From contig JAKJDL010000003.1 in assembly GCA_022705945.1 (NCBI GenBank), forward strand, positions 20,257 through 84,256: 64,000 bases of DNA, given 5' to 3'. The notes below the pieces were generated by a model. It did no database searches and was not told the origin of the DNA. It saw nothing but the letters and a program-made list of their open reading frames with translations. Numbering within the stretch: the stretch's first letter is position 1; every line of letters begins with the position of its first letter. The stretch comes from Candidatus Omnitrophota bacterium. GTDB taxonomy: Bacteria; Omnitrophota; Omnitrophia; Omnitrophales; Aquincolibacteriaceae. Position numbers and translations under genes: made by a program. This document shows positions 1,106 to 63,263 of the stretch, one piece after another.

Positions 1106-3214
1106 TCAGAAAGAAGTCCTTCTCAAAAGCATTTTTAACCTTGCCAAAAGTTTGTCGTGATCGAACGGCTTCATCATGTAATCATCCGCTCCGGCATCAA
1201 TTCCTTTCAATTCGCTCTCCTTGTCATGCCGTGCGGTCAGCATGATGATCGGAATAACGGCGGTCTCCAGGCTCGAACGAAGCTGCTTCGTCAGCTCAAA
1301 TCCGTTCATCTTCGGCATCGTCACATCCGTAATGACAAGATCCGGCTTCTCCTGAAAGGCCAGAAGAAGTCCCTCGTTCCCGTCCCTCGCCTTGATCACG
1401 TCGCAGTTGGCCATCACAAGCCGTTTTTCCAAGGCCCGCAGAATATCCTCTTCATCATCCACAATCAGGATCAGGGGGCGTTCACCACGCCTGACCGCCA
1501 TACGGCTTACCTCGTCCTCTTCAAGGACAATGACCCGGGCAAGCTCATCCAGGGTCGTGTGTCCTTCAAGCACCTTCTCAATCGCGACGGTTGATAGCGG
1601 TTTCAACCCTTCCCTCCTGGCCTCGGTAAGAATCTCATTGGCGGAGGCCTTGCGTTCGACCATGGCTTTGATCGATTCCGTAATTTCCAAAACCTCCAGA
1701 ATCGGTATCCGCCCGAAAAATCCCGAAAAACCGCATTCTTCACAACCTTTTCCCCGATAAAACCGGGTCGCACCGGCTTTGTCCAAATAACTCCTGATTT
1801 TTTCAAGTTCGGACGGATCCGGCAGGTATTCCTCCTTGCAACGAGGACATATTCTCTTGATAAGCCTCTGGGCCACAACAACGGCCAGCGATGACGCAAT
1901 CAAATAAGGTTCCAGCCCGAGATCAAGAAGCCGGGTGATTGAGGCCACAGAGCTGTTTGTATGCAAGGTCGACAGTACGAGATGGCCCGTCAGCGACGCG
2001 CGAAAAGCAATGTCCGCGGTTTCCCGGTCCCTTATTTCTCCGACAAATATCACGTTCGGATCCTGCCTCAGGAAACTTCGGAGTGCCGTTGAAAACAGAA
2101 AATCTTTCGCGGGATTAATCTGGGTCTGATTAATACCTTCAATCAGATATTCAATGGGATCTTCTATGGTCACAATATTCTTTGTTTCACATTTGATGTA
2201 ATTCAGCGTCGCATAAAGCGTAGTCGTTTTCCCGGAACCCGTCGGCCCCGTCACCAGAACCATCCCCTGGGGCTTGACAATGTGATTCTTGTACTTTTGC
2301 AGGCTCTTTGGATCAAACCCCACGTTGTCGAGATCGACCCTCATCGCCTTGGGATCCAGTATTCTGATTTCCACTTTTTCCCCGTAGGCGGTCGGGATCG
2401 TTGCAATTCTCAAATCAATCTTTCTGTCCTGAAAAAGCAGCTTGAGCCGCCCGTCCTGGGGTTTCCGTTTTTCCACAACATCCATGCCGGCGAGAATTTT
2501 AATCCGTGCGGCAAGCTCCACCTGCAACTTGGCGGGTACTTCCATGATGTTTCGCAGATCCCCGTCAATCCGGTATCGGACCTTCACCTGATTTTCTTCC
2601 GGTTCAATGTGAATATCGCTGGCCCGGGCCTTGAGCGCATCCTTCATGATCAGGTTGTACAAACGGACAATCGGAGACGCCTCATCCTTCATGGAGGTTT
2701 GGTCGATGACGATTCCTCCGCTCTCTTCTTCCCGAATGATTTCAAACGGAGCTGCGTCGGGGACATTTTTCAGAATATCATAGATGGAATCATCCGTTTG
2801 GTAGTGTTTGTTGATAGCCTTGTTAATATCGCTCTTCGTGCAAAGGGTGGGTTTCACTTTGAGTTTCGTCCGGATCCTCACCTGCTCCATCGCCATGAGG
2901 TCCTGGGGGTTACTCATGGCCAGAACAAGAACATCCCCTTCGCGTCTGACCGGAAATACCCCATATCGCTTGACGATCTCGTATGTCAACAGGCAAAGGG
3001 CTGCAGGATCGATGGTTTCCCTTTCCAGATCAGACAGCGGCATCTTGTAAACCCTGGAGGCCGTTTTAAGGAGATCTTCTTCCTTCAGAAACCCCATCTC
3101 CACAAGGAGTTCATGGACAGGTTTCTTGGCTCCAATCTGCTTCGTTTTCGCATCAGCAAGCTGTTCCGAACTGATTAGCCGCTCTCTGATCAGTTCGTCA
3201 AACAGAGAAGACAT
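1106..3214 (-). CDS. pilB: PilB/GspE-family secretion ATPase with a fused C-terminal response-regulator receiver (REC) domain
   Basis: 702 aa. It has an N-terminal T2SSE_N-like domain, a Walker A motif GPTGSGKTTT, the tetracysteine motif CPRCKEEY...CEECGFSG, and a C-terminal segment LILIVDDEEDILRALEKRL...DLVITDVTMPKMNGFELTKQLR typical of CheY-like receivers (acceptor Asp in DLVITDV). Confidence 0.9.
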   Translation of the reverse strand: MSSLFDELIRERLISSEQLADAKTKQIGAKKPVHELLVEMGFLKEEDLLKTASRVYKMPLSDLERETIDPAALCLLTYEIVKRYGVFPVRREGDVLVLAMSNPQDLMAMEQVRIRTKLKVKPTLCTKSDINKAINKHYQTDDSIYDILKNVPDAAPFEIIREEESGGIVIDQTSMKDEASPIVRLYNLIMKDALKARASDIHIEPEENQVKVRYRIDGDLRNIMEVPAKLQVELAARIKILAGMDVVEKRKPQDGRLKLLFQDRKIDLRIATIPTAYGEKVEIRILDPKAMRVDLDNVGFDPKSLQKYKNHIVKPQGMVLVTGPTGSGKTTTLYATLNYIKCETKNIVTIEDPIEYLIEGINQTQINPAKDFLFSTALRSFLRQDPNVIFVGEIRDRETADIAFRASLTGHLVLSTLHTNSSVASITRLLDLGLEPYLIASSLAVVVAQRLIKRICPRCKEEYLPDPSELEKIRSYLDKAGATRFYRGKGCEECGFSGFFGRIPILEVLEITESIKAMVERKASANEILTEARREGLKPLSTVAIEKVLEGHTTLDELARVIVLEEDEVSRMAVRRGERPLILIVDDEEDILRALEKRLVMANCDVIKARDGNEGLLLAFQEKPDLVITDVTMPKMNGFELTKQLRSSLETAVIPIIMLTARHDKESELKGIDAGADDYMMKPFDHDKLLARLKMLLRRTSF

Positions 3215-51155: not shown

Positions 51156-54100
51156 TTAAGCCGATCGTGCGATCAGGGACATCTTGACGAGCTCTGTCGC
51201 AAGTTCCGCGACATGGCTGATCACAAGCCCGTAAGTACCCTTTCTCTGCATTGCCATACCGTGATCTTGCATTTGTTTCAGAAGCGCTTCGGCGCTGGCG
51301 TCGGCAAACAATGTCAGCTGCACGGCAAATCCGGCAGCAATCAGTAGATCCTCATCCCCCATTCGCTCCCCGATCGCGACGTTCACGCCGCCCTCAAGCG
51401 ACGGAAGCAGCGCATCATCAAGGTGAATCGTCGCCATCCGGCCGTTCATCTGAGCAATGCGTCCGTTAAGCACAACCGCTTCGCTCTGGCCATCGCTGAT
51501 CGGATTCACTTTAAGGAACTTATCGAGGTCAGCGAGAACAGCGTTCCGTTCAGCAACGTTCGCGATGCCGGCTTTCCTGTTCTCGATCGCGATGCGGATC
51601 CGATCACGCAGCGACGCATCCCCCGAAGTTTCGAGCACCGGCGTCCCCCGGGGGGTATGTTTCCAAACATTGTGGAATGATCTCAGCAGAAGATAAAGCG
51701 CCCGCGGATTGTCCTTCAGGAGCCTTGAAAAAAGGCTTGATCCGGCATATACGACACCCCCCGCTTCAACATCGGCCCGATCATGAACGCGCGAAGATGT
51801 GATTGACTGGACCGTAGCTGACGGAATTTCCGGCAGGTCTTTCGCGGAAAAAATCGCGGAAAGAACTTCCGTTTCCGTCATTGCGGCATGGACGGTTCCG
51901 GGCACAGAAACCCCGGAAGCTTTGAGAAGTCTTATGAGCGCCTCTGTCCCGTTTTTAAGACTGTGCTCCAAACCATCCTGGACACGGATCGGAGCGATTC
52001 CGAAATAATATTCGCGAATCAACACCAAAACCTCGGCACTTACCAGTCTTCGAAGATTCATCTGATCCGGACTCGCAGTCACAGCCGCCCGCGCTTCGGA
52101 ACGGGATGCGGAAGTTTTTTCAGTAGGTATTTGCTTAATCCCCGCCGCGATCCGCAAAAGTTCAGCCTCTTGCGGGCTTAGGTGAAATTGCTTGACGATC
52201 GTATTAAACGTCTCTTGTACATCAGTATCCGCCGCGGCAGAAGAAGGGTCCAGAAAATCCAGAGCCTGGGACAACTGAGGTATCCCGCGGGGGATCCTGG
52301 ACTTCACAAGCTCGAAAACCTTCTTGCGCTCGCCCTTTTGACGCTCCAGCCGCGCCCGCTCAAACCCAGCCCTGCGGACGGCTAACGACCTCTCGAAATC
52401 CATCGCCCGCTCGGACAAAGCCTGCTCCTGCTGCGCGGCGATCTCCTTCAACTCGGCAGCATTCCTCTTCTTCTGGGTCTCCGTCTCCGCCGCGAAATCG
52501 CGACGCAACTTTGCCACTTCAGCAAGCAGCGCAGCCTCCTCGCCATCCTGGTCTTTCGCGAAAATCTTGAGTTCATTTTGGAGCGCTTGTTCGACCGACA
52601 CCCGAACACCTTCGAGCACTTGTTTCCACTGACCGGCGAGCCAGGTGCTCAAAGCATCCGCCTCGGTCTGCCTCCATTTCTTCTTGGCCTCGATCTTCGC
52701 GGCATCGCCATTAAGCTCGTTCCACACGGCACGCTCAATGTCGTTCAGGAGGTCATTCCGCATCACGGTAAAATTGGTCAGCGGAACAGGCTGACCGTGC
52801 CACAGGTCCACACCGGAGAGCACAGTAGCGCTGTAATACGGCATAGCTCTCCTACGGATCACTTTGGCCATGGGGACATCTTCCCCCCGCAGCGCCTTTT
52901 GCAGCGTCGATAGGCCGACGACATCCACATTCACCGGAAGCCCGGGTATGACGCGTTTAATTTTCGAGGACAACTTCTCCGCGCTCACCCGTTCAAACGC
53001 GCGGTCTCCCGCGACCACCACGATCAGATCCAGATCATTCGGTGTTTCTTTCCAGACATAACTCCCCATCACCGACAACTCCACCAGGGGCTCGACCTGA
53101 GATATCAGCTTGCTCTCATAAAGAGCAGCTATTATCGCCGTAATCTTGGCTTTGAGCCGAGCAATGCGTTCCGTGATCTTTGTCGCCGCCGACGGATCGG
53201 ACTTGGTCAAATGCGGCCACAGCCAGCTCCTCGACATCAGTCTCGCTACCGATTCACGGGCATCGGACACGATCAAACCGTCCTGGTTCGGATCAAAGGA
53301 CGGGATCTTGAAATCCCAGAAAGTGACGTCTGCCGCGAAGGGCTTGATGATCACTTCCAGCTTGCCGCCAACCTTGGGTCGGGCGGGCTTCGGCAGTCGC
53401 GTCACGGGCACTTCAACCCCCATAGCATTTCTCGAACGGATATTGAATATATCAAGGTGTGGAGCCTTATCCGTCACGGAATAGGAACCACTCTCATTTC
53501 CGTAGATATCATAGGTGGTCTCCTCATGCGTTTCCTCGGGTTCTTCCCTATAATCCGCAAGCAATGATTCCCCCCGCATATAGGCGGTCTGGATGCCTGC
53601 GACCTCATCATCGCTTAAAACTTTGTAGGTTCTGCTGTGTCCTCCAATCCAGTCAAAATAGCGCCTCAATTCTTTAAGTGATACGCCCGGGCCGGAGGCA
53701 ACCATCAACGAAAGGATCCCCGCGGCAAGGCGATGACTATCCTCACCAAATCTTTCCCTCAGACACTGCAAAAGCGCCGGAATCGCCATGGGATCTTTCC
53801 ATTCGCGAAAAACTCTCAGGATCGATTTATAGACGGAATCGGAGCGGGCATCGTTGTATAATTCGGCAATCAACGCGGAAAGCAGGCTTCTATCGCCGAT
53901 CTCGCCGATCGCATCGACCGCAAGAGCACAAACGTTGTCCCGCGGGTCCCCCAACAGTTCTATCAGCGCGTCAACGGCCTTGAAGTGCCTTAAAGCCCCG
54001 ACGAGCGATTTACTTGCTTGTTGTTGACGTTTCTGGTTTTTCGCTTCCCGGATGATTGCCGGCAGGGCCTTGCCCGCATTAAGGGATGCGCCGAGAGCCG

Positions 54101-57100
54101 CTGCCGCAAGCGCACAAACATTGTCCCGAGGATCCCCCAGCAGCTCGATCAAGCCATCGACCTCTTTGAGCTGGACCAGCGCCTTCACCAGCACCTCGGC
54201 CGCAGCCGGTTTACGCTTGATGTTCCTCGATTCCTGGAGTAGCGCAGCAACGGATCTTTTATCTCCCACCTCTAGCAATTCCGCGGTAACCGCGATGCAA
54301 ACACCGTCATCGACATCTTTAAGAGCTTTTATCAGCGCGTCGACCGATCGTGCGTCCTTGTATTCGGCTAGCGCACCAGCAAGCCGCTTCCTCAGTTCAA
54401 CGTGCGGACTGGCGACGAGCCGTTCCGCGAACACCTCCGCGACTCGCGGGGATTTTATTGAGGCGAGTACCTCAGCCGCCATGCTGGCGACATCCACTTG
54501 GGCATGGGATAAGAGCGGGATCACCAATTCGATGGATGCGGGATCCCTTAAACGGACCAAAGCCATTTTCGCTTCTTGATCCACTCTCGATCCATGGTAA
54601 GAGGAATACCGGTTATCTTCCAGCGCACGGACCAGCGCCGGGACCACTTTGGGATGATTCATCCCGCCCAAGGCCCGAACGGCGGCGCAGGAGAGAGGGA
54701 CATCTATATCCCTTTGCATCAGCGATATCAGCGGGTCAACGGCTCGAGGATCTTTTATTTCCCCAAGCGTCTTGATCGCGGCGATCCGGCGATCTCCGCC
54801 GCTACCATTATGGTTACCATCCCACCACTTCGGCTGGATGTCGCGAAGGACTTTCTGGAATTGCCTTTCCTGTTCAGGTGTCAGACGGGTTTCGGAACGC
54901 AGCGTTGACTGCGCCACCTTAACATTTCCCGCTCGAATGCGCAGCGCCGCTTGGGCAACATTCTCCGGAACTGCACCGGCGCCCGGTAAAATCCAGTTGC
55001 CCTTGATGGCTCCTTTCGGGTTATCCGGATCAAGACGTTCGATCTGGCCAAGCGCATGGTCAATCCAGAAATCGAGCTCCGCAGGATCCGTTTCCGGCCC
55101 CGTAACGGGAAGCTCGGGAGCATAGCTGTAGAAATCGACCTTGGTGTCCCAGTTGAACTGCTTTTCAAAAATGAGCCGGGAAAGGTGCATGCCGGTGGGC
55201 ATTTGAACCAAAATAGCGTTGGAGATCTTGGCGCCCTGCCGCTTCAAAAGGGCGGCACTAAACTCCGCATTCTGACCCGTGTGCATGGAATCCGCTTCGA
55301 TATCAAAAGGAACGGAAAGTCCCCCTTGTCCATTTCCAAACCCGAGGTCTGTAAGGTCCTTCGTGATAAGTTTGCTGAGCGTAACAGCCTCGGCAACCGC
55401 GCCGGGCCCCTTACCGGAAGCAAGAATGCGCTTGGGTTTGTATTTGAGAAAAGCCTCTACGGCAGCCTTGGCCGTCACTTCCAGTTTAGGATTTCCAAGA
55501 ACAATTAGGACGTCCGGATTCTGCGGTGCATTCTGATCTCGTTCCGCCAAAAATCCAAACACCGTCCCGACATCCGACGCTTGTCCCGTTTGCCCGGCTG
55601 TCTCCGTTTTGCGAGCTTCGGAGCGCGGGGTCAGGACATCAAGCACTTCCACGGTAACGCTTGCGCCGACGGGATTGAAGCTGCGGCCCCACGCCGTTCT
55701 GCCAAAATGGAATGTGATCCCGCTCATACCGGCAGGAATAGTCACGATCACATCGGTGTTACCGGAATAAGGCCCCTTCTTCCAAGACGGGTTATCACCG
55801 GGCCCGCTGATATAAAATCGCGCATCACCCGACGTTACGATATGCAGGCCCTTGCCTCCAAGGCCGCTCCCGGTGGAAGCAGACGCCCAGGTGTAGGAGT
55901 TCCCGCCATTCACCAACGTGTTGCCGTTCACCTTCGCGTCACCATAAGCGCTCCAGCCGCCGAGCACACTCCGTGCACTACCCATATCATAATTCTCCGA
56001 AGAAGGCTTCGTATCCGCCGAAGAATCGCGTTTCGGCTTTTCAGGGCGGGTGGCCACGGGAGTTGTCGCGGTCGGTGTAATATCGTCTTCGCTGTCCTTC
56101 TCTTCGCGCACTATGCCGTTAGCTTTTGTCACTGCAAATTGACTTGCCCGAGATTCGGAACGCCTTTTCACCTCACGCGCGGCCTCATGCGAAACAGCTT
56201 TCAAAATCAAATTCCTCTCTTTTTCAAAAAAGGCCTCAGCATCCTCACCGTTCAGCCCGGTTGCCGCTTGAAAGGTTTCAAGAATTTGTCCGGCAACATC
56301 AAAATAGTCCTGTCCCATTGCGTCGAGCGTTTTTCTCCCCTGCAACGCGGCCCAAAGCAGGTTGGTGTCTGCGGTCACATTCTTGACAAGATCCTGAGCG
56401 ATCCGCGAAGCCAGCGCATCAGCATCCACCCGTGATTCCGACCGCGGGGTCAGGACATCAAGCGCTTCCACGGTAACATGCGCTCCTTGCGGATTAAGCG
56501 GCTCCCCCCAGGCTTCGGCGCCAAAGTGAACCGTCACGTCAACCGCATCGGCCGGAAGGTCAAGAATCATGTCGGAATTCGCGGGGAAAGGTCCCATTTT
56601 CCAGGAGGGATTCGGGCCGGATCCGCTGATGTAATAATCCGCGGTCCCGGAAGTCACGACATGCAGCCCCTTGCCAGCAATACTCACAACAGGAACCGTT
56701 ACAGCCGATGCCCACCTCATCGTATTTCTTGCGTTAATCAGTGTGTTCCCCAAAACATCCGCATCACCCCACCACGACGTCCAGTTCCCGAGAATGCTCT
56801 GCGCGGAATCCATATCGTATTTCCCGGGTTCTTCGGTAAGGTTCACCCGATCAATCACCTTCACGCGATAGAAACGCTGTCCGGGAAGCTCGCCGCCCGT
56901 AAAACTTCCGTCATCGGTCCAAGATAGACTGTTAACGTCTGAAAAAATTCCTCTCTGCGCAATCTCCCAGTCTCCTTGCGTGAGGCTGTCACGATAGTCG
57001 ACCTGATAAATAAACCCGGGCTGGGTTTTAAAAGTGACTTTGAAATTGCCGTTTTCCTGTTTAAGGCCGCGAATCACGGGCGTTTCAACCGGAACAGGAA

Positions 57101-60100
57101 TCTCATATCTCCCTGCGTTCGGATCGATCGTATTTGCCAGGTTCACGGTTGCCGTGATCGGGTCCGTTGTCGAGGTTTCGGCCAGAACCCCTGTTCCCTT
57201 CTTCACGATCATCGCCCAACTATTCGCCGGAGCCGTACGAATCTCATTACTCCCCAAGTCTTCGAGCGCTTGATAGATCGATTCGCTTAAAGCGGGATTT
57301 ATATTCAAGCCGCTATTGTCAGCGACTCCAATCAGTACGACCGAACCATTTGGGATGGCGTTCAAGTAATCAGCTACCCCTTGTCTAAAAGCGGCATCGT
57401 ACTGATTTGCCCATGTATCAAAATGCTTGAATTCTTTGAACCGTATGCCGGTTTTTTCATCTAGGATCGCAATATTGACCCCCCGGGCGCCACCACCATC
57501 CACACCCTTACGGAACAAGACGGTCTTGCCATTAAGTTCAAACTTCACCGAACCACCGGAAGTTATCTGCATCACGGGATTCGTCACAAGCGGGATCGCG
57601 TTCTGCCCGTCAAGTGAGAAGCGCTGCTGAACCGCGTAATAGGCCGGTCTCGGATTGCGATAAATATCAAGAAGCCCAAAGTACTCTTCGTCATTATGTC
57701 CGTCCGGTTGGCCCCCGTTTTGCTCCCAACTGGGCGCCTGCGTCATGGGGTAACCATTTTTGTGCCACTCGTCGTTCCATTCAAAATAAAGTCCCCCGGA
57801 GATCACTCCATTCGTACGTGAGGAAGCAAGATTGAAAATGATCTCATCCCAGAGACCGCGATTGAAATCAGCCTGCACCTGTTCATCCACTCCGCTCGCA
57901 TAATGGCTATAGGCATCGGCCCCAAACTCACTGACGAATGCCGGACGGGTAGTAACTTTGGACCATTGCGAAAAGGCATCCCCAAAACTCCAGCCGCGGT
58001 AAAGCTGCAATCCAAAAACATGGACGCTCGGAAGATCAGCAACAATATCAGCGGTTTGAATACCACCGTCCAAGGTTTCTGGCGCATAATGATAGGGGCT
58101 TCCGAAGTACCACTGAACGATATGCGGATCCGCCATGAAAGTGATGACCACATGGTTCGTGTCCAGGCCTTTGACGATCTGGGCCGCCCGCTCTGTGTAT
58201 TCAACGGAATCCTGGAGAGTCGTAAAGGTGTTGTAGTAATAGTTGATATCCCATTCGTTCCCGATCCCCCATCCGAGGATCGCGGGATGGTTTTTAAAAG
58301 TGTTCACAACGCCGGTAATATTATTGGTCCTTGCGATCTGGCCGTAAAAAGGTGAATCGACCGGCATAATGACCTTGATCCCATGCTTGTAAAACTGGTC
58401 CAGAAGCGCAACCGCCTGCGCGTTGGTTCCCGGATCATAGTAGGGCCGGATCACATTGGCGCCCATCGCCGCCATCATGGGAATGTCATTCGTCGACCAC
58501 TTGAACATTTCCTGGCGATAGACAAGCGGATACCACTGCGGATCGATTCCCGGGGAGGTGGGACCCCAGTTAGCGCCTTTGATGGTCAACGCGTAAGGAG
58601 TTCCCAGCGTTCCGTCCGGTTTCCGCTCCTCGACGAAAATCCGGCGGTCCCCTTCTTTCGTATAGGTCACAGTCGGAAGATTGGGCACACCGAAAGTCTG
58701 CGCTACCACATCCCTCGCGGCAAGCAGAAACGCCGCAACTCCGGCAAGCATCGTCAAAAAAACCGAAGATGAAATACTAAAAACTGAAACCCTGCGATCC
58801 GAATCTTTTGCCGGGGACCGTCCTTTGCGCACCTCCGAGCGGACGGGAACAATCCTTATAATCTCCGGTCGCAAAACCTTCCATACTTGATGCGCTTCCA
58901 CTTTGGTGGTGTTAGTGAACTCGTATTCATCCCCCTCAGCTTCCGAAGGCGGACTGTGGCCTCTCGGCAACATGAACGTACTACTTTCCACAGTTGCTTT
59001 TTCGGGAACTTTCATCCATTCGCCTTCTTCGGGGAAATAATCGATCCGGAACGGTTGATTCATCTGCAAAGCATCCGGAAGAAGATGCAAAACGAGGTAG
59101 CTCAAATGAAGATTTTTAACATAATCAGACGGGGGAATATAAGAAACGGTGATCAACTTCTCCTGCTCGAGAAAATTATATACCAAGAACTGTTCGCTCT
59201 CTTTTCTTTCGTACAAACTGATCTTCTCCAGAGCTTCGCTCGGAATCAGTTCTTTCAATTGTTCGATCGCCCGAAGAATACCGGGGGCAGCGAGATGGGA
59301 AGAATGCATCAAATAATGAACCAACCCATCCAGATCATTCCCCCGGATAAAACGGCGAACATTCACCCAGAAATCAGCCCAGAAATAAACCCAGAAATAA
59401 GCCGGGAAATGAGCCCGGAAATAAGCCCCTCGGAAATGCCGGAAAACTAAAACCAAGATTCCGAATCCGGCCAATGTGACAAAACCGACTAGAGCATCTC
59501 CCATATCTAAACGCACACTGGCAGCGGCATTGGCTAAAAGACTCGTTGGGTCGATTGTAACACCTGCTGCGCCGACAGCATGCGCAATAGCGGGCACCGA
59601 AAAAACAAATTCATGCATTCGGGCTTCCGAGCGGGATTTGTAATCATCAAGCTGTTTTTTGTAACGCGTCACGCGATCCTGCGCTTCGGCCTCCTGTTTT
59701 TTCAGGATCTCCAGACGCCTGGATTCATTAGACCTCGGATTCCGTAATTTTGTTGGGTCCCGCTCTAGCCTCCGGATCTCGTTCCCAATCACGTCAAGAT
59801 CCGACTGCGCGCGACGCAGAAGGGCCTCCAGCCACTCCCCGTCTGCGTCATAAGAGGTCTTCACCGTTTCGCCGCGAGTTTCAGAGCGGGGTGAGGCGGA
59901 GCCGTTCCCCGAACTTTGCAATGCGGTATAAAGAATCCCCAACGGGCCCGAAAGCATAGGATAGTGCCCTGCGACGGAAGTTTCGTGATCAGGGAAGCGG
60001 CCCCAGGGGTTTGGAGCGGTCAGGGTCGCGTGAATAGCACGAATACGCTCAACCACCCATAACTTTTGCAAATCTTCAAATACGCTTCCTCGCCATTCGT

Positions 60101-63100
60101 CAACATCCCCAAGGTCGCCCAGGAGATTAAGAACCGCCTCATGGGCCGCAATCTTGCCGGCAACCGACTTGTCATCCCCCAATGTAATTTCAAAAATGCT
60201 TTGCTCCCCAGTCCGGACCTCAAGCGTCCAGATGGCGGTATACTCCTTCAAATAAAGACTCAACGTCCCAAGCGAAGCGATCCGCTCCTCCCCCACAAAC
60301 TTTTTCAAAAAATAGCGACCACTCTCCTTGACAAGAGCGACATCCTGGAACTTTTCACGCGCCAGCCCCGGCCAGCCTGCCGGTATGTGCCGAGACTGAG
60401 TCGCCCGCGCTTCGGCGCGAGGTTTGGCGGCAAAAATGTCCAGATTAACACGCACCCGGGGAGCATCCTTGTGGGCATTCGCGATCGTCACCCCAGCGCC
60501 GTTGTCCATTCTCACATGGTCGCGAGCCGCCTGATAGTTCGCAAGAACAATCGGTCCCCGGCGGTCAAACACAAGACGGATCCTCTCATCGAGAATACTG
60601 GGAGACCCTTGGGACAGAAGGATTTCCAGGCTCTCCAGAAACTCCCTCCCCCATCTTTCCCAGGAAACATGTTCCACCACAAAACCGGAATATACCGGAT
60701 CTTCATGCATGGCGGCTTCGATCTTTTTACGCACCGCACCGGTCGCTAAAGGATAAAGTTTTTCCGGATCTAACCTTGCATTGCGGACCACCCTCAAAAC
60801 ATGTCCGGCAATGACCGCGATTATTCCCGCAGCCGCCCCAAATACACCCGTTAGCCTCGGGAACACCCCCCTCCCGGTTGCAGCGCCTTCCACTCGTGCT
60901 TCGGAGCGGAGTGAGGCGGTTACACCCTGTTCCTCACGGATGGCCTCCAATATCCTCTTCCTCTCCTGGTAAAGAGAACGGAGACTGGATCGTATGGATT
61001 CCAAAGTTTTTTCGATCTCCGGAAGCCTGCGGGGAGCATCAGCCAGCGCTTCAGGCGTCAAACCGTAATGTCTTGTTCGTAAACGATTCCGTTCACCAAT
61101 AAGTTGAAACTCCTGCTCCTGCAATCGCCAAATATCATCCTGGACGGTATCCCAGCGGCGAGATGTGTCCACCGGCACAGCATCCGACGCTTGTCCCGTT
61201 TGCCCGGCTGTCTCCGTTTTGCGAGCTTCGGAGCGGACACTCGATGTCGCGATACCGGCCGCTTTCTTGAGACGGACGGCAAGGTCCTGGGTGGCTTTGA
61301 GATCGTGTTTCACGACAGTCTGCGCCGCGCGATAAACCATCAGGGCTAACTTCTGCGGATCAATGCCGTAGGAAGTGCCTTCGGGAGCGGAAAAAACCTT
61401 CGGATCGGAAAGAAAAACCGATTCGTATGTGGATTTTAAAACCGGAGCTGGAGACTCATGGCCGGGGACCCGTTTTCGTCCTTCGTTCTGTTGAGCCCCG
61501 GGTTGCGAGGTTCGAGCCCTGGTCCGCAAGATGTGAGCGATATAGGCCCGATGCCCTTCCTCATCCACCCCGCTGATAAGCGGTGAAATGAGCGCGTAGG
61601 TATAATTCCTGGACGCAAAATAATCCTTGAAGGGCTGTGAGTGGAAACCTCCCGTAATAACCGCCGCTTTCCGGACCCCGGTCTCACGGAGGCGTTTTTC
61701 GACCTTTTCGATCATCGCAAGATCACGCGCTTTGACTCCCGAATAAAATTCCATCGCGGAATCATAGAGCGCATCCAACTCCGCCAAATGATCGAATTGC
61801 ACGTTTTTGATCTTGCGGATACCGGATTGGGGACGGAGGATAGCGCTTTCAAACCTGCGGGCAATACCTGAGGGGCTCAAGCTCCCTTCGTCTTCCGTCG
61901 TTCGCCGACCGATTTTTTCATAATCATCAGCCGTCAATTCCAGCGAAAACAGTTTCTGCAGGAGCCGATAATCCCTGAGCATGCCGACGATCTTCTTTTC
62001 CGTCTCGGTCTTCGCGAGTTTTTCGGCAATCATGTCCGTGAGTTTTGAAACCTCACCCATGAGACGGTCTGCCTTAAGCTCGCTCGATAAAAGCAGCGTC
62101 CCGATAAAATACCGGACATTCGGGAAAGCGGCATAATTGAAATCCTTCGGAAGGAGTCTGACCATATCCTCAAAAAGTAAGCTTGTTTCGGGATCGGGAA
62201 GCTGCCGGCTCATCGAATCATTTCGAAGCAATGATTCGACCGAGGACACAAGACCGCCGGACCGTAAAGCCGCGGGCTCATGGCTTGCGGCATGTGCCGT
62301 GCGGTGTGTGTCTTGTGGAATAAAACGCCGAAGAGCTTTGAGAAATTCATCCCGTTCTTTTTCAAAAGCTTTCCCGTTAAACTGCTGATGCAGTTTTTTC
62401 AATTTGAAAAAACGCACCATCATCGGCCATTGAATTTGAAGCGCGGCGTTTCGGAGGTCCATTTTGAGGGATCTTTCCGATTCCTCTCCGAGACAGGATA
62501 ACCAGGCGTCAAACGGCATGAGCTTCTTTTCAAAGGAATCTTCGGAACGGAGAAATTTCCGGAGATTGTCGTTCAAATAATGACTGGAGAGCCGGCTGAT
62601 CCCTTCATCCATATTTCTGAGGAACCGGGATGACTTTTCCTTTTGATTCAGTACAGTCACAAAGGATTCACCGTTCGCCCGATAGGTTCCGATGTCTTCG
62701 ATTCCCAGCGCTCTCGGCAAAGGGGTCCGCGGCGATCCGGCGGAAAATCGGTTTGCGTTTTTCTGCAGTTTGTCCAGCAAATAGAGTTCGGGTCCCTTTA
62801 CGATTGCGTGCTTCGTAAGCTCATCCGCCACACTTTGCGTCAGTTTGGGATTGCCGGGAAAAAAATTCAAAATGTCCGGATCAAGTTCGTAAGCGCTGCC
62901 TTCCACGAACACTGTCTGGACCCCGTGATTTTCATCCAGATAATGAAGTATCTCGCGGATTTTCTGCTGAGCTTCATAATGCCCGTGAGCGGTCTGGATA
63001 TGAATGATGCTGGCACCTTGTCCCGTGCGGATATCCTCGACCTTTCCGAGATTTTGAGGAAGCGCGAGCTTCAGACTTGAATCAAGCGCCACCTGGTAAG

Positions 63101-63263
63101 GGAGCCTGGTTTCAGCAATTGACGGCATCGACGCGGCACCGAAAGACACTCCGGGCGTCCAGATCGTGGTGGCAATGAAAGCAACCAGAGTGACAAGGGC
63201 GGTAACAGACTTACTTTTGCGGAAGGACAAACTGGAAACATTTGCACTGTGGTTGCTGTCCAT
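51156..63263 (-). CDS. Giant (4035 aa) multi-domain secreted/membrane-anchored protein of unknown function. Domains are itemised in the findings: signal anchor, TraB/GumN/Tiki-like, GH-A glycoside hydrolase, ILEI/PANDER-like, tandem-duplicated unknown domain, DUF218-like, HEAT repeats, minimal nucleotidyltransferase motif, coiled coils.
   Basis: Uninterrupted 12,108-nt reading frame on the minus strand. N-terminal MDSNHSANVSSLSFRKSKSVTALVTLVAFIATTIWTPGVSFGAAS signal anchor. Internal domains were recognised by motif: GNEW/SEFG for the glycoside hydrolase, GS...DLDLIVVVAGD for the nucleotidyltransferase, HEAT/PBS-lyase repeats. Nine RSE[ATSV]R motifs. The AT-rich 380-bp upstream region and a terminator-like hairpin downstream suggest a monocistronic unit. 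Confidence 0.85.
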   Translation of the reverse strand: MDSNHSANVSSLSFRKSKSVTALVTLVAFIATTIWTPGVSFGAASMPSIAETRLPYQVALDSSLKLALPQNLGKVEDIRTGQGASIIHIQTAHGHYEAQQKIREILHYLDENHGVQTVFVEGSAYELDPDILNFFPGNPKLTQSVADELTKHAIVKGPELYLLDKLQKNANRFSAGSPRTPLPRALGIEDIGTYRANGESFVTVLNQKEKSSRFLRNMDEGISRLSSHYLNDNLRKFLRSEDSFEKKLMPFDAWLSCLGEESERSLKMDLRNAALQIQWPMMVRFFKLKKLHQQFNGKAFEKERDEFLKALRRFIPQDTHRTAHAASHEPAALRSGGLVSSVESLLRNDSMSRQLPDPETSLLFEDMVRLLPKDFNYAAFPNVRYFIGTLLLSSELKADRLMGEVSKLTDMIAEKLAKTETEKKIVGMLRDYRLLQKLFSLELTADDYEKIGRRTTEDEGSLSPSGIARRFESAILRPQSGIRKIKNVQFDHLAELDALYDSAMEFYSGVKARDLAMIEKVEKRLRETGVRKAAVITGGFHSQPFKDYFASRNYTYALISPLISGVDEEGHRAYIAHILRTRARTSQPGAQQNEGRKRVPGHESPAPVLKSTYESVFLSDPKVFSAPEGTSYGIDPQKLALMVYRAAQTVVKHDLKATQDLAVRLKKAAGIATSSVRSEARKTETAGQTGQASDAVPVDTSRRWDTVQDDIWRLQEQEFQLIGERNRLRTRHYGLTPEALADAPRRLPEIEKTLESIRSSLRSLYQERKRILEAIREEQGVTASLRSEARVEGAATGRGVFPRLTGVFGAAAGIIAVIAGHVLRVVRNARLDPEKLYPLATGAVRKKIEAAMHEDPVYSGFVVEHVSWERWGREFLESLEILLSQGSPSILDERIRLVFDRRGPIVLANYQAARDHVRMDNGAGVTIANAHKDAPRVRVNLDIFAAKPRAEARATQSRHIPAGWPGLAREKFQDVALVKESGRYFLKKFVGEERIASLGTLSLYLKEYTAIWTLEVRTGEQSIFEITLGDDKSVAGKIAAHEAVLNLLGDLGDVDEWRGSVFEDLQKLWVVERIRAIHATLTAPNPWGRFPDHETSVAGHYPMLSGPLGILYTALQSSGNGSASPRSETRGETVKTSYDADGEWLEALLRRAQSDLDVIGNEIRRLERDPTKLRNPRSNESRRLEILKKQEAEAQDRVTRYKKQLDDYKSRSEARMHEFVFSVPAIAHAVGAAGVTIDPTSLLANAAASVRLDMGDALVGFVTLAGFGILVLVFRHFRGAYFRAHFPAYFWVYFWADFWVNVRRFIRGNDLDGLVHYLMHSSHLAAPGILRAIEQLKELIPSEALEKISLYERKESEQFLVYNFLEQEKLITVSYIPPSDYVKNLHLSYLVLHLLPDALQMNQPFRIDYFPEEGEWMKVPEKATVESSTFMLPRGHSPPSEAEGDEYEFTNTTKVEAHQVWKVLRPEIIRIVPVRSEVRKGRSPAKDSDRRVSVFSISSSVFLTMLAGVAAFLLAARDVVAQTFGVPNLPTVTYTKEGDRRIFVEERKPDGTLGTPYALTIKGANWGPTSPGIDPQWYPLVYRQEMFKWSTNDIPMMAAMGANVIRPYYDPGTNAQAVALLDQFYKHGIKVIMPVDSPFYGQIARTNNITGVVNTFKNHPAILGWGIGNEWDINYYYNTFTTLQDSVEYTERAAQIVKGLDTNHVVITFMADPHIVQWYFGSPYHYAPETLDGGIQTADIVADLPSVHVFGLQLYRGWSFGDAFSQWSKVTTRPAFVSEFGADAYSHYASGVDEQVQADFNRGLWDEIIFNLASSRTNGVISGGLYFEWNDEWHKNGYPMTQAPSWEQNGGQPDGHNDEEYFGLLDIYRNPRPAYYAVQQRFSLDGQNAIPLVTNPVMQITSGGSVKFELNGKTVLFRKGVDGGGARGVNIAILDEKTGIRFKEFKHFDTWANQYDAAFRQGVADYLNAIPNGSVVLIGVADNSGLNINPALSESIYQALEDLGSNEIRTAPANSWAMIVKKGTGVLAETSTTDPITATVNLANTIDPNAGRYEIPVPVETPVIRGLKQENGNFKVTFKTQPGFIYQVDYRDSLTQGDWEIAQRGIFSDVNSLSWTDDGSFTGGELPGQRFYRVKVIDRVNLTEEPGKYDMDSAQSILGNWTSWWGDADVLGNTLINARNTMRWASAVTVPVVSIAGKGLHVVTSGTADYYISGSGPNPSWKMGPFPANSDMILDLPADAVDVTVHFGAEAWGEPLNPQGAHVTVEALDVLTPRSESRVDADALASRIAQDLVKNVTADTNLLWAALQGRKTLDAMGQDYFDVAGQILETFQAATGLNGEDAEAFFEKERNLILKAVSHEAAREVKRRSESRASQFAVTKANGIVREEKDSEDDITPTATTPVATRPEKPKRDSSADTKPSSENYDMGSARSVLGGWSAYGDAKVNGNTLVNGGNSYTWASASTGSGLGGKGLHIVTSGDARFYISGPGDNPSWKKGPYSGNTDVIVTIPAGMSGITFHFGRTAWGRSFNPVGASVTVEVLDVLTPRSEARKTETAGQTGQASDVGTVFGFLAERDQNAPQNPDVLIVLGNPKLEVTAKAAVEAFLKYKPKRILASGKGPGAVAEAVTLSKLITKDLTDLGFGNGQGGLSVPFDIEADSMHTGQNAEFSAALLKRQGAKISNAILVQMPTGMHLSRLIFEKQFNWDTKVDFYSYAPELPVTGPETDPAELDFWIDHALGQIERLDPDNPKGAIKGNWILPGAGAVPENVAQAALRIRAGNVKVAQSTLRSETRLTPEQERQFQKVLRDIQPKWWDGNHNGSGGDRRIAAIKTLGEIKDPRAVDPLISLMQRDIDVPLSCAAVRALGGMNHPKVVPALVRALEDNRYSSYHGSRVDQEAKMALVRLRDPASIELVIPLLSHAQVDVASMAAEVLASIKSPRVAEVFAERLVASPHVELRKRLAGALAEYKDARSVDALIKALKDVDDGVCIAVTAELLEVGDKRSVAALLQESRNIKRKPAAAEVLVKALVQLKEVDGLIELLGDPRDNVCALAAAALGASLNAGKALPAIIREAKNQKRQQQASKSLVGALRHFKAVDALIELLGDPRDNVCALAVDAIGEIGDRSLLSALIAELYNDARSDSVYKSILRVFREWKDPMAIPALLQCLRERFGEDSHRLAAGILSLMVASGPGVSLKELRRYFDWIGGHSRTYKVLSDDEVAGIQTAYMRGESLLADYREEPEETHEETTYDIYGNESGSYSVTDKAPHLDIFNIRSRNAMGVEVPVTRLPKPARPKVGGKLEVIIKPFAADVTFWDFKIPSFDPNQDGLIVSDARESVARLMSRSWLWPHLTKSDPSAATKITERIARLKAKITAIIAALYESKLISQVEPLVELSVMGSYVWKETPNDLDLIVVVAGDRAFERVSAEKLSSKIKRVIPGLPVNVDVVGLSTLQKALRGEDVPMAKVIRRRAMPYYSATVLSGVDLWHGQPVPLTNFTVMRNDLLNDIERAVWNELNGDAAKIEAKKKWRQTEADALSTWLAGQWKQVLEGVRVSVEQALQNELKIFAKDQDGEEAALLAEVAKLRRDFAAETETQKKRNAAELKEIAAQQEQALSERAMDFERSLAVRRAGFERARLERQKGERKKVFELVKSRIPRGIPQLSQALDFLDPSSAAADTDVQETFNTIVKQFHLSPQEAELLRIAAGIKQIPTEKTSASRSEARAAVTASPDQMNLRRLVSAEVLVLIREYYFGIAPIRVQDGLEHSLKNGTEALIRLLKASGVSVPGTVHAAMTETEVLSAIFSAKDLPEIPSATVQSITSSRVHDRADVEAGGVVYAGSSLFSRLLKDNPRALYLLLRSFHNVWKHTPRGTPVLETSGDASLRDRIRIAIENRKAGIANVAERNAVLADLDKFLKVNPISDGQSEAVVLNGRIAQMNGRMATIHLDDALLPSLEGGVNVAIGERMGDEDLLIAAGFAVQLTLFADASAEALLKQMQDHGMAMQRKGTYGLVISHVAELATELVKMSLIARSA
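55571..55625. repeat. 55-bp exact intragenic direct repeat, copy 1 (partner at 61182..61236)
   Basis: CATCCGACGCTTGTCCCGTTTGCCCGGCTGTCTCCGTTTTGCGAGCTTCGGAGCG is identical at both sites and encodes RSEARKTETAGQTGQASD on the minus strand. Confidence 0.9.
59366..59447. repeat. Intragenic 12-bp tandem repeat (about 5-6 units) encoding aromatic tetrapeptide repeats A-[Y/H/D]-F-[R/P/W]
   Basis: CCCAGAAATCAG/CCCAGAAATAAA/CCCAGAAATAAG/CCGGGAAATGAG/CCCGGAAATAAG... read on the minus strand as AYFR-AHFP-AYFW-VYFW-ADFW, next to predicted TM helices. Confidence 0.85.
61182..61236. repeat. 55-bp exact intragenic direct repeat, copy 2 (partner at 55571..55625)
   Basis: Same 55-mer as 55571..55625, about 5.6 kb away within the same ORF. 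Confidence 0.9.

Follow-up and report, generated by a model that had tools for sequence, protein, structure and literature searches.

The 64,000-nucleotide (nt) stretch of DNA analysed here, referred to as the window (Candidatus Omnitrophota bacterium, assembly GCA_022705945.1, contig JAKJDL010000003.1, positions 20,257 to 84,256), carries on its minus strand a giant open reading frame (ORF) of 4,035 amino acids (aa; 51156..63263, from the ORF list and its translation), within which a secreted-type glycoside hydrolase (GH) is joined to an ILEI/PANDER-like (GG-type) domain. The ORF consists of a head, ten cargo cassettes and a tail, all read from the minus strand. The head (61236..63263; aa 1-676) has an N-terminal signal or anchor at aa 23-41 and is followed immediately by the pentapeptide RSEAR at aa 677 (61221..61235), the first of a series of short junction motifs, and the tail (51159..52088; aa 3726-4035), delimited by BLASTP, ends in LIARSA. 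There are ten copies of the pattern RSE[ASTV]R in the giant ORF, whereas each of the five remaining frames of the window has one or two instances of RSExR; if Ala is also allowed at the second position (R[SA]ExR), there are 11 motifs in the 4,035 aa. A motif scan locates RSEVR (58827..58841; aa 1475-1479) and RSESR (56430..56444; aa 2274-2278), which open and close the GH cassette, and further motifs at 60894-60908, 60405-60419 (RAEAR), 59874-59888 and 59619-59633, as well as, downstream of the GH unit, at 56148-56162, 55611-55625, 54885-54899 and 52089-52103.

The glycoside hydrolase-ILEI unit

The secreted-enzyme unit occupies window positions 56,847-58,826 (aa 1480-2139). All peptides quoted in the first-pass annotation are present in a single minus-strand frame of the ORF: DSDRRVSVF at aa 1487 (nt 58805), VAQTFG at 1520, ILGWGIGNEWD at 1662, AFVSEFGADAY at 1775, VLFRKGVDGGG at 1915, EDLGS at 2001 and RFYRVKV at 2130. 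The unit drawn there at 56830-58800 is real but slightly too small: the full GH cassette runs from RSEVR through an extra β domain resembling a carbohydrate-binding module (CBM), here called the YDM domain, to RSESR.

The unit opens with a signal-peptide-like segment (58701..58826; aa 1480-1521) in which an n-region (KGRSPAKDSDRR), an h-region (aa 1497-1515, hydropathy peak 2.07) and a c-region (DVVA/QT) are all present, but which lies inside the ORF. Aligned with the nine closest free-standing homologues (P0001-P0009; 647-686 aa, 41-60% identity, 98-100% of the query covered), aa 1487-1521 fall column for column on the N-terminal signal peptides of most of them, as expected if the segment is the internal signal peptide that had been proposed, and the start of the mature protein, (x)FGVPNxPT, matches as well. 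At the other end, free-standing homologues terminate 6-10 residues past RFYR; such proteins, with identities of up to 60%, are spread over several phyla. Judged by these alignments, the GH-ILEI unit corresponds to a whole secreted protein. Internal translation starts were considered as a means of freeing the unit and rejected: no suitably placed start codon or ribosome-binding context lies upstream of the n-region in the giant ORF, and Met is not enriched after the junction motifs.

The segment is followed by a (β/α)8 catalytic domain of clan GH-A (57585..58700; aa 1522-1893). A profile and alignment were made from 62 sequences, drawn from 64 homologues found, and an AlphaFold2 (AF2) model of aa 1522-2143 was built on this alignment. 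The model is of high confidence (predicted local distance difference test score, pLDDT, 94.1; predicted template modelling score, pTM, 0.94) and comprises an eight-stranded (β/α)8 barrel, an α/β domain at the ILEI region and a six-stranded β-sandwich. The predicted acid/base, Glu1670 of the GIGNEW motif (58254..58256), and Asn1669 before it come directly after model strand 141-146 (β4), and in the alignment Glu1670 falls on the GNE of GH158(Pro) and BuGH158. The predicted nucleophile, Glu1779 of FVSEFGAD (57927..57929), is located within strand 254-259, at the end of β7, and aligns with the VSEYGA of the Bacteroides uniformis GH2 β-glucuronidase 6d8g. Both residues are invariant (62/62 homologues). 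The first-pass annotation had picked both of them and had suggested structure prediction as a check on their geometry; the model puts both at the positions predicted for clan GH-A. The nucleophile codon had been given exactly and the acid/base residue correctly, the codon of the latter (58253..58255) being off by one base.

Searches with the structure and with the profile agree on this clan. Foldseek with the model returned GH2 (3e-14), GH158 (2e-13) and GH72 (5e-10), and the family profile, run against PDB sequences, placed GH158 first (E 3e-20, at partial coverage), with GH2 at ~1e-11 and GH72 at 8e-10. Pfam matches to GH2_C (18.4 against a gathering cut-off of 21) and GH72 (12.1 against 25.9) were both sub-threshold. 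By sequence profile and model, then, the catalytic domain is a member of clan GH-A with GH2, GH157, GH72 and GH158 as its nearest families, and the original label of 'GH5/GH2-like' is acceptable.

The ILEI/PANDER (GG-type) domain spans 57141..57575 (aa 1897-2041), with its Pfam core at aa 1927-2023 (57195..57485). On this region PF15711 reaches 57.1 bits where the gathering threshold is 27, with E 2.6e-15 and an alignment over profile positions 1-89 of 90. A single-sequence search matched FAM3C (5lc2) at 2.7e-6, and the family profile matched the POMGnT1 stem (2.5e-13), FAM3B (4e-13) and TMEM2 (5e-10) in the PDB, along with FAM3C and FAM3A, bearing out the assignment made at first pass. The GG/ILEI domain is otherwise familiar chiefly from animal proteins (FAM3, POMGnT1, TMEM2), and a bacterial fusion of it to a GH-A enzyme had been called unusual. 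That view does not hold: 37 of the 64 homologues carry PF15711, already under the NCBI name 'interleukin-like EMT inducer domain-containing protein' (one so named, among the nine closest, is from Verrucomicrobiota). Relatives of the catalytic domain were found at more than 514 loci in species-representative genomes from Omnitrophota, Myxococcota, Verrucomicrobiota, Planctomycetota, Acidobacteriota, Bacteroidota and other phyla. As far as domain matches can tell, the fusion of GH-A and GG domains is a recurrent bacterial architecture. In three other Omnitrophota genomes, GH-ILEI is found in conventional stop-free frames of 1,200-2,100 aa that lack the junction motif, and at least one of these (L002) starts with an N-terminal signal peptide.

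One free-standing homologue, P0004 (locus L082), lies in a same-strand run of unannotated genes behind a sigma factor of the extracytoplasmic function (ECF) type. We considered this gene cluster as a possible 'unfused' counterpart of the giant ORF and rejected it, as BLASTP matches the GH gene alone. About 7 kb downstream of P0004 (L082 16901-17944) is a pair resembling a cyclic oligonucleotide-based antiphage signalling system (CBASS), with Pfam hits to Cap15 and CD-NTase.

Beyond the ILEI domain, the β-sandwich that ends in RFYRVKV (56847..57077; aa 2063-2139) forms six strands in the model (residues 542-618, pLDDT above 86), as the first-pass annotation had foreseen. The all-β YDM domain (56445..56819; aa 2149-2273) is the last in the cassette. 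A second copy with 55% identity to the first lies at 55626..55994 (aa 2424-2546) and runs into the next junction as ...LDVLTPRSEAR; a DNA repeat covers the end that the two copies have in common. Both copies, recognisable by YDM...LDVLTP, are unannotated, and each abuts a junction motif at its end. The AF2 model of the YDM domain is all-β and of moderate confidence (pLDDT 65); its residues 136-144, which overlap RSESR (model residues 135-139), fall below a pLDDT of 50. Foldseek matches to CBM70, CBM29 and the CBMs of GH101 are weak (E 1e-3 to 1e-2, TM-score 0.35-0.49), and the CBM-like assignment is tentative. Sandwich and YDM domain are conserved together in P0080/L081 at 58-64% identity, and L081 was the single locus found when metagenomes were scanned with the YDM domain. 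By analogy with the POMGnT1 stem and with CBM-like folds, the GG and β domains probably serve as glycan-binding or spacer modules. Locus L081 (1-120; Ga0172380_10038597) has an in-frame TAA at a Tyr codon of the sandwich (GFV*QIEYRD, where the window has GFIYQVDYRD), for which a sequencing error and a strain pseudogene are among the possible explanations.

A head-cargo-tail family and its junction motif

The first-pass annotation was right that the GH unit is embedded in a giant protein, but this is no one-off: in a large Omnitrophota family, R[SA]ExR motifs enclose many different proteins. HMMER was run exhaustively with aa 1-1200, which cover the head, and returned 4,918 representative proteins (clustered at or below 50% identity) at E<=1e-3 and 550 at E<=1e-30, with E-values down to 3.5e-272. 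In each of the best 150 of the 4,918, the match lies at the protein's own N-terminus and extends through aa ~15-650 of the giant ORF; their lengths are mostly 2,000-7,800 aa. Members with source names are all from Omnitrophota and are named after one cargo domain, under labels such as adenylate kinase, Glu/Leu/Phe/Val dehydrogenase, 6-phosphofructokinase and HEAT repeat.

The head opens with a Sec-type signal peptide and contains a set of residues (H88, Q90, H93, E121-G122, E189, R284, E404, R513 and TGGFH537-541) that are 91-100% conserved in 139 sequences. Pfam gives weak, repeated matches to the ChaN/Tiki hydrolase superfamily (PF04187) in 3 of 16 members (E 0.005-10, best 0.0046) and to DUF5694 in 3 of 16, and the head profile matched nothing in the PDB. 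The tail (aa 3726-4035) aligns by BLASTP at the extreme C-termini of 12 family members; it always follows the last motif, and tails across the family end in [KR]SA or AA, like the LIARSA of the window. No Pfam or PDB sequence match was obtained for the tail, and the window tail has no similarity to P0080. The giant ORF thus carries, by sequence, all three features by which we define the family here, namely the head, the tail and the density of R[SA]ExR.

If the giant ORF were an artefact, with adjacent genes fused by an error of assembly or sequencing, the GH would be an ordinary gene. The exact 4,035-aa product is indeed absent from the gene-call index, and the in-frame TAA of L081 could be taken to point the same way. 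A 12.1-kb stop-free frame in a genome of ~52% GC content is not a chance event, however, the signal peptide has neither start codon nor ribosome-binding context before it, and head-cargo-tail proteins of 2,000-7,800 aa recur in thousands of independent assemblies; we regard an artefact as scarcely credible.

Counted over the best 150 family members (435,882 aa), R[SA]ExR occurs 918 times, or 2.1 times per 1,000 aa where composition predicts 0.056, a 38-fold enrichment. At least three motifs are present in 91 of the 114 members of at least 1,500 aa. The first is usually just past the head (aa 550-680) and the last usually 220-330 aa before the C-terminal end, ahead of the tail; the median spacing between motifs is 211 aa, and their flanks are rich in Ser, Pro, Thr and Ala, as in linkers. 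By comparison, 63 free-standing GH homologues (41,404 aa) contain no motif at all, and none of 80 genome loci with GH relatives has a stop-free stretch with two or more RSExR; the motif is therefore not a general property of GH homologues. A profile of 14 lengthened junction windows, searched against a set of 5.8 billion proteins, gave 227 candidates, none of them significant.

Several lineages have preferences of their own (RSELR, RSESR, RAEVR), and the boundary motif seems to be lineage-variable. Four long proteins with the same head (P0119, P0152, P0204 and P0230) lack R[SA]ExR; the enriched pentamers contain ELR in P0119 and are of the form KSExR in P0230.

The motifs mark the edges of exchangeable units. 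Other members contain cassettes of the window ORF in a different order, with alignments that begin or end 0-10 residues from a motif, and the Pfam domains of relatives (glutamate dehydrogenase, phosphoglucomutase, acyl carrier protein) fall between motifs and not across them. In P0020 a HEAT module is followed by PGRSEAR and then by the signal peptide and GH; in P0098 the order is RSEAR, a textbook twin-arginine translocation (Tat) signal (SRRDFLRTAALATAGFFLLPAGTARA), GH-ILEI-sandwich ending in RFYRVKATGQVF, and RSEAR again. The motif has the same placement relative to the signal peptide in these two proteins as RSEVR has in the window. In P0080/L081, sandwich and YDM domain are followed by RSEAR and then by different cargo.

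Among the other cassettes of the window ORF, that at 52104-54884 is a 927-aa unit with PBS-lyase-type HEAT repeats at its start, and its first ~60 residues (LTPEQERQFQK...) recur right after motifs in P0081, P0085 and P0086. The cassette at 54900-55610 is a DUF218 (SanA/YdcF-like) unit that remains below the Pfam threshold (24.1 against 27.6 bits).

At the DNA level, the 11 motifs show a biased choice of codons: Arg is CGN in 22 of 22 cases (74% across the ORF), Ser is TCN in 10 of 10 (68%) and Glu is GAA in 10 of 11 (57%). Two junctions with their following linkers (RSEARKTETAGQTGQASD, at aa 677 and aa 2547) form a 66-nt direct repeat of 94% identity (55560-55625 and 61170-61235), which suggests recent duplication or gene conversion between junctions; the codon bias could reflect a constraint on the nucleotides or common descent of the junctions. 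These features, together with the shuffling of cassettes among family members at breakpoints that coincide with motifs, raise the idea that the motif acts mainly as DNA, as a recombination junction (CGN-TCN-GAA-NNN-CGN) for cassette exchange whose peptide has no post-translational role, an idea compatible with cleavage or its absence. Yet third positions and the x codon vary freely, with synonymous codons at the fixed positions, and the amino acids are kept. Conservation of the motif as protein also extends over representatives that share 50% identity or less, where 15 nt so divergent would be a poor substrate for recombination, and exclusive use of TCN is expected of any conserved Ser because the change from TCN to AGY takes two steps. 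A role mainly at the DNA level is, in our view, improbable.

Signals at junctions and a possible precursor

Export signals are found where the motifs would make new N-termini. A signal-like hydrophobic stretch follows within 50 aa of 9.5% of motifs, compared with 3.2% upstream of motifs and 3.8% at random positions. Tat-like RR motifs occur 15 times after motifs and 4 times at random, and lipoprotein-type signals with a lipobox Cys 3 times against 0.3. The latter come right after motifs in P0084 (aa 1220), P0087 (aa 2910) and P0089 (aa 1186), for example RSELRVRSVIQRVTIFAAVAAMAGLVGC, and canonical Tat signals do so in P0098, P0104 and P0105. Sec, Tat and lipoprotein signals act at the N-termini of proteins. 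The distribution of signals suggests that the cassettes are separate functional proteins. We favour the reading that the giant ORF encodes a polyprotein-like precursor, because signals follow motifs, such signals act at N-termini and much of the cargo consists of cytoplasmic enzymes.

The same ORF could be read as an intact, multi-pass membrane protein in which the internal signal is a transmembrane (TM) helix that places GH-ILEI outside the cell, with R[SA]ExR serving as a linker, hinge or docking motif between tethered modules. Hydropathy identifies five hydrophobic segments in the ORF (aa 23-41, 800-825, 1219-1237, 1256-1274 and 1497-1515), with which the GH unit of an uncut chain would end up outside; long Omnitrophota proteins are pictured in the literature as membrane-associated, multi-domain proteins with a signal peptide and TM segments; and neither the Pfam nor the PDB search with the head gave a clear processing protease. 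On the other hand, the ~1,900 residues downstream, HEAT repeats and tail included, would then lie outside as well, and they contain no TM helix. The Tat and lipoprotein signals that relatives carry after their motifs are canonical N-terminal features, and the lipoprotein-type signal that follows the motif of P0084 would insert in the wrong orientation if the chain were uncut. Cargo such as glutamate dehydrogenase and adenylate kinase, moreover, is normally found as free cytoplasmic proteins. An uncut chain consequently strikes us as unlikely, although it is the most serious of the alternatives.

Under the precursor reading, which we hold at a probability of about 0.6, the 4,035-aa product would be cut at or next to the junction motifs, and we infer that such a cut would free the GH unit with a normal N-terminal signal peptide. 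The freed unit would be exported through Sec or Tat, signal peptidase would cut after DVVA, and the enzyme would act outside the cytoplasm on a β-linked glycan. It is predicted to be a retaining β-glycanase that works by double displacement, Glu1670 being the acid/base and Glu1779 the nucleophile. The order of the cassette, from export signal through GH-A, ILEI/GG (by analogy glycan-binding) and an Ig-like β-sandwich to a CBM-like β domain, would suit such a role. Polymers similar to β-1,3-glucan are a weak guess as substrate, made by analogy since GH157, GH158 and GH72, which make up three of its four closest families, act on such glucans.

A number of points weigh against this proposal. Cleavage is put forward here from sequence, and the searches turned up no protease domain with confidence. 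The conserved head is a tentative candidate for the processing protease, through its Tiki/ChaN link; its Sec signal, however, would place it outside the cytoplasm, whereas the neighbours of many junctions are cytoplasmic enzymes. R[SA]ExR is scarce or absent in about 20% of the long members of the family, and the codon bias and the 66-nt repeat mean that DNA-level processes may contribute to the pattern. The RR motif of the window (DRRVSVF) is a poor Tat consensus, the RR being canonical in P0098 and P0009 (RRSFLQ in the latter), and the substrate guess rests on neighbouring families at just 14-24% identity.

A wider claim can be put forward, tentatively and at somewhat less than even odds: R[SA]ExR motifs are true processing sites, and Omnitrophota make a sizeable share of their ordinary proteins as head-cargo-tail polyproteins that are cut by the Tiki/ChaN-like head or by another Arg-specific protease. 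If so, the cargo would take in cytoplasmic housekeeping enzymes, membrane proteins, lipoproteins and Tat- or Sec-exported hydrolases like GH-ILEI. This would amount to a virus-like strategy of gene expression in a cellular organism, with cassettes shuffled freely at the junctions, and may be an instance of bacteria expressing core metabolism as polyproteins. For practical purposes, the motif supplies concrete, testable cut sites for giant proteins and a rule by which giant ORFs can be divided into units before annotation and structure prediction.

The surroundings of the giant ORF are unremarkable. In Candidatus Omnitrophica bacterium ADurb.Bin277 it is flanked by ordinary housekeeping genes, for tyrosyl- and isoleucyl-tRNA synthetases (TyrRS, IleRS), an ATP-binding cassette (ABC) transporter, DnaE, primase and sigma-70, and no protease gene was found among 20 scanned neighbours. 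Elsewhere in the window, 1106-3214 (minus strand) encodes a type II/IV secretion ATPase (MshEN and T2SSE) with a response-regulator receiver domain fused at its C-terminus.

Comparison with known systems

Among characterised enzymes, the GH158 endo-β-1,3-glucanases (BuGH158, PDB 6PAL; GH158(Pro), PDB 9ORO) have the barrel and the GNE acid/base in common with the window enzyme. GH158(Pro) is a retaining enzyme with two Glu, its catalytic residues having been assigned by structural comparison and glycosyl-enzyme intermediates trapped in crystals (PMC13195107). The profile match, however, spans only ~146 of ~370 catalytic positions, and in GH158 the barrel is followed directly by a single Ig-like domain (PMC13195107), whereas in the window it is followed by the ILEI domain, the β-sandwich and the CBM-like domain. 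We considered filing the catalytic domain under GH158 and rejected this because coverage is partial, the domain order is different and three other families score equally. GH2 (β-glucuronidase/galacturonidase), GH157 (PDB 9FZ9) and GH72 (Gas2p/Gel4) share fold and catalytic positions with it at 16-21% identity. Its nucleophile motif, VSEFGA, is close to the VSEYGA of GH2, but the unit lacks the N-terminal sugar-binding and Ig domains of GH2, as well as the Cys-rich domain of GH72.

The GG domain retains the GG...RG.N signature and the ...LGS of its counterparts in the POMGnT1 stem, FAM3A-D/PANDER and TMEM2/CEMIP. As in POMGnT1 and TMEM2, it stands beside a carbohydrate-active catalytic domain; the difference is that it is bacterial and C-terminal to a clan GH-A barrel, where the partners in POMGnT1 and TMEM2 are a glycosyltransferase and a β-helix hyaluronidase, respectively. 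The enzyme represents a widespread, uncharacterised lineage of clan GH-A, and lends itself to the definition of a new CAZy family and to work on the role of GG domains in bacteria.

The published giant proteins of Omnitrophota (the Archaeovorin and Dockerin types) come from the same phylum and are likewise long ORFs with multiple TM segments and many unrelated enzyme domains, glycoside hydrolases and ILEI among them. They are at least 10,000-30,000 aa long, compared with 2,000-7,800 aa in the head-cargo-tail family, and the papers that describe them mention no conserved head, conserved tail or R[SA]ExR motif; one of the two does not mention cleavage. Post-translational cleavage has been proposed for these giants, with the cleavage points stated to be unknown (10.1101/2023.11.21.568195), and whether and where huge proteins are cleaved is likewise stated to be unknown (10.1101/2023.11.21.568195; PMC11573180), and in a survey of huge proteins it is protease motifs that are named as still missing (PMC11573180). 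For Omnitrophota, a preprint from 2026 gives a definition of 'multi-enzyme metabolic clusters' (10.64898/2026.06.07.730766). Our own literature search, whose coverage is incomplete and which may have missed an earlier description elsewhere, found neither the head-cargo-tail family nor its R[SA]ExR motif described, and nothing that pairs 'polyprotein' with Omnitrophota. A large family with a defined junction motif has thus apparently gone undescribed, and it turns the question of whether and where the long proteins of Omnitrophota are cut into a direct test.

The closest parallels in organisation are found among processed polyproteins. Those of flaviviruses and pestiviruses combine internal signal peptides with protease sites, and the gingipain/adhesin polyproteins of Porphyromonas are also processed. 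There is no sequence relationship between these systems and the window ORF, whose cargo includes core metabolic enzymes of a cellular organism and whose processing is proposed from sequence. The plan is nevertheless alike in each case: one ORF encodes several proteins, short, recurring motifs with basic residues mark the boundaries between them, and internal signals send particular units across a membrane.

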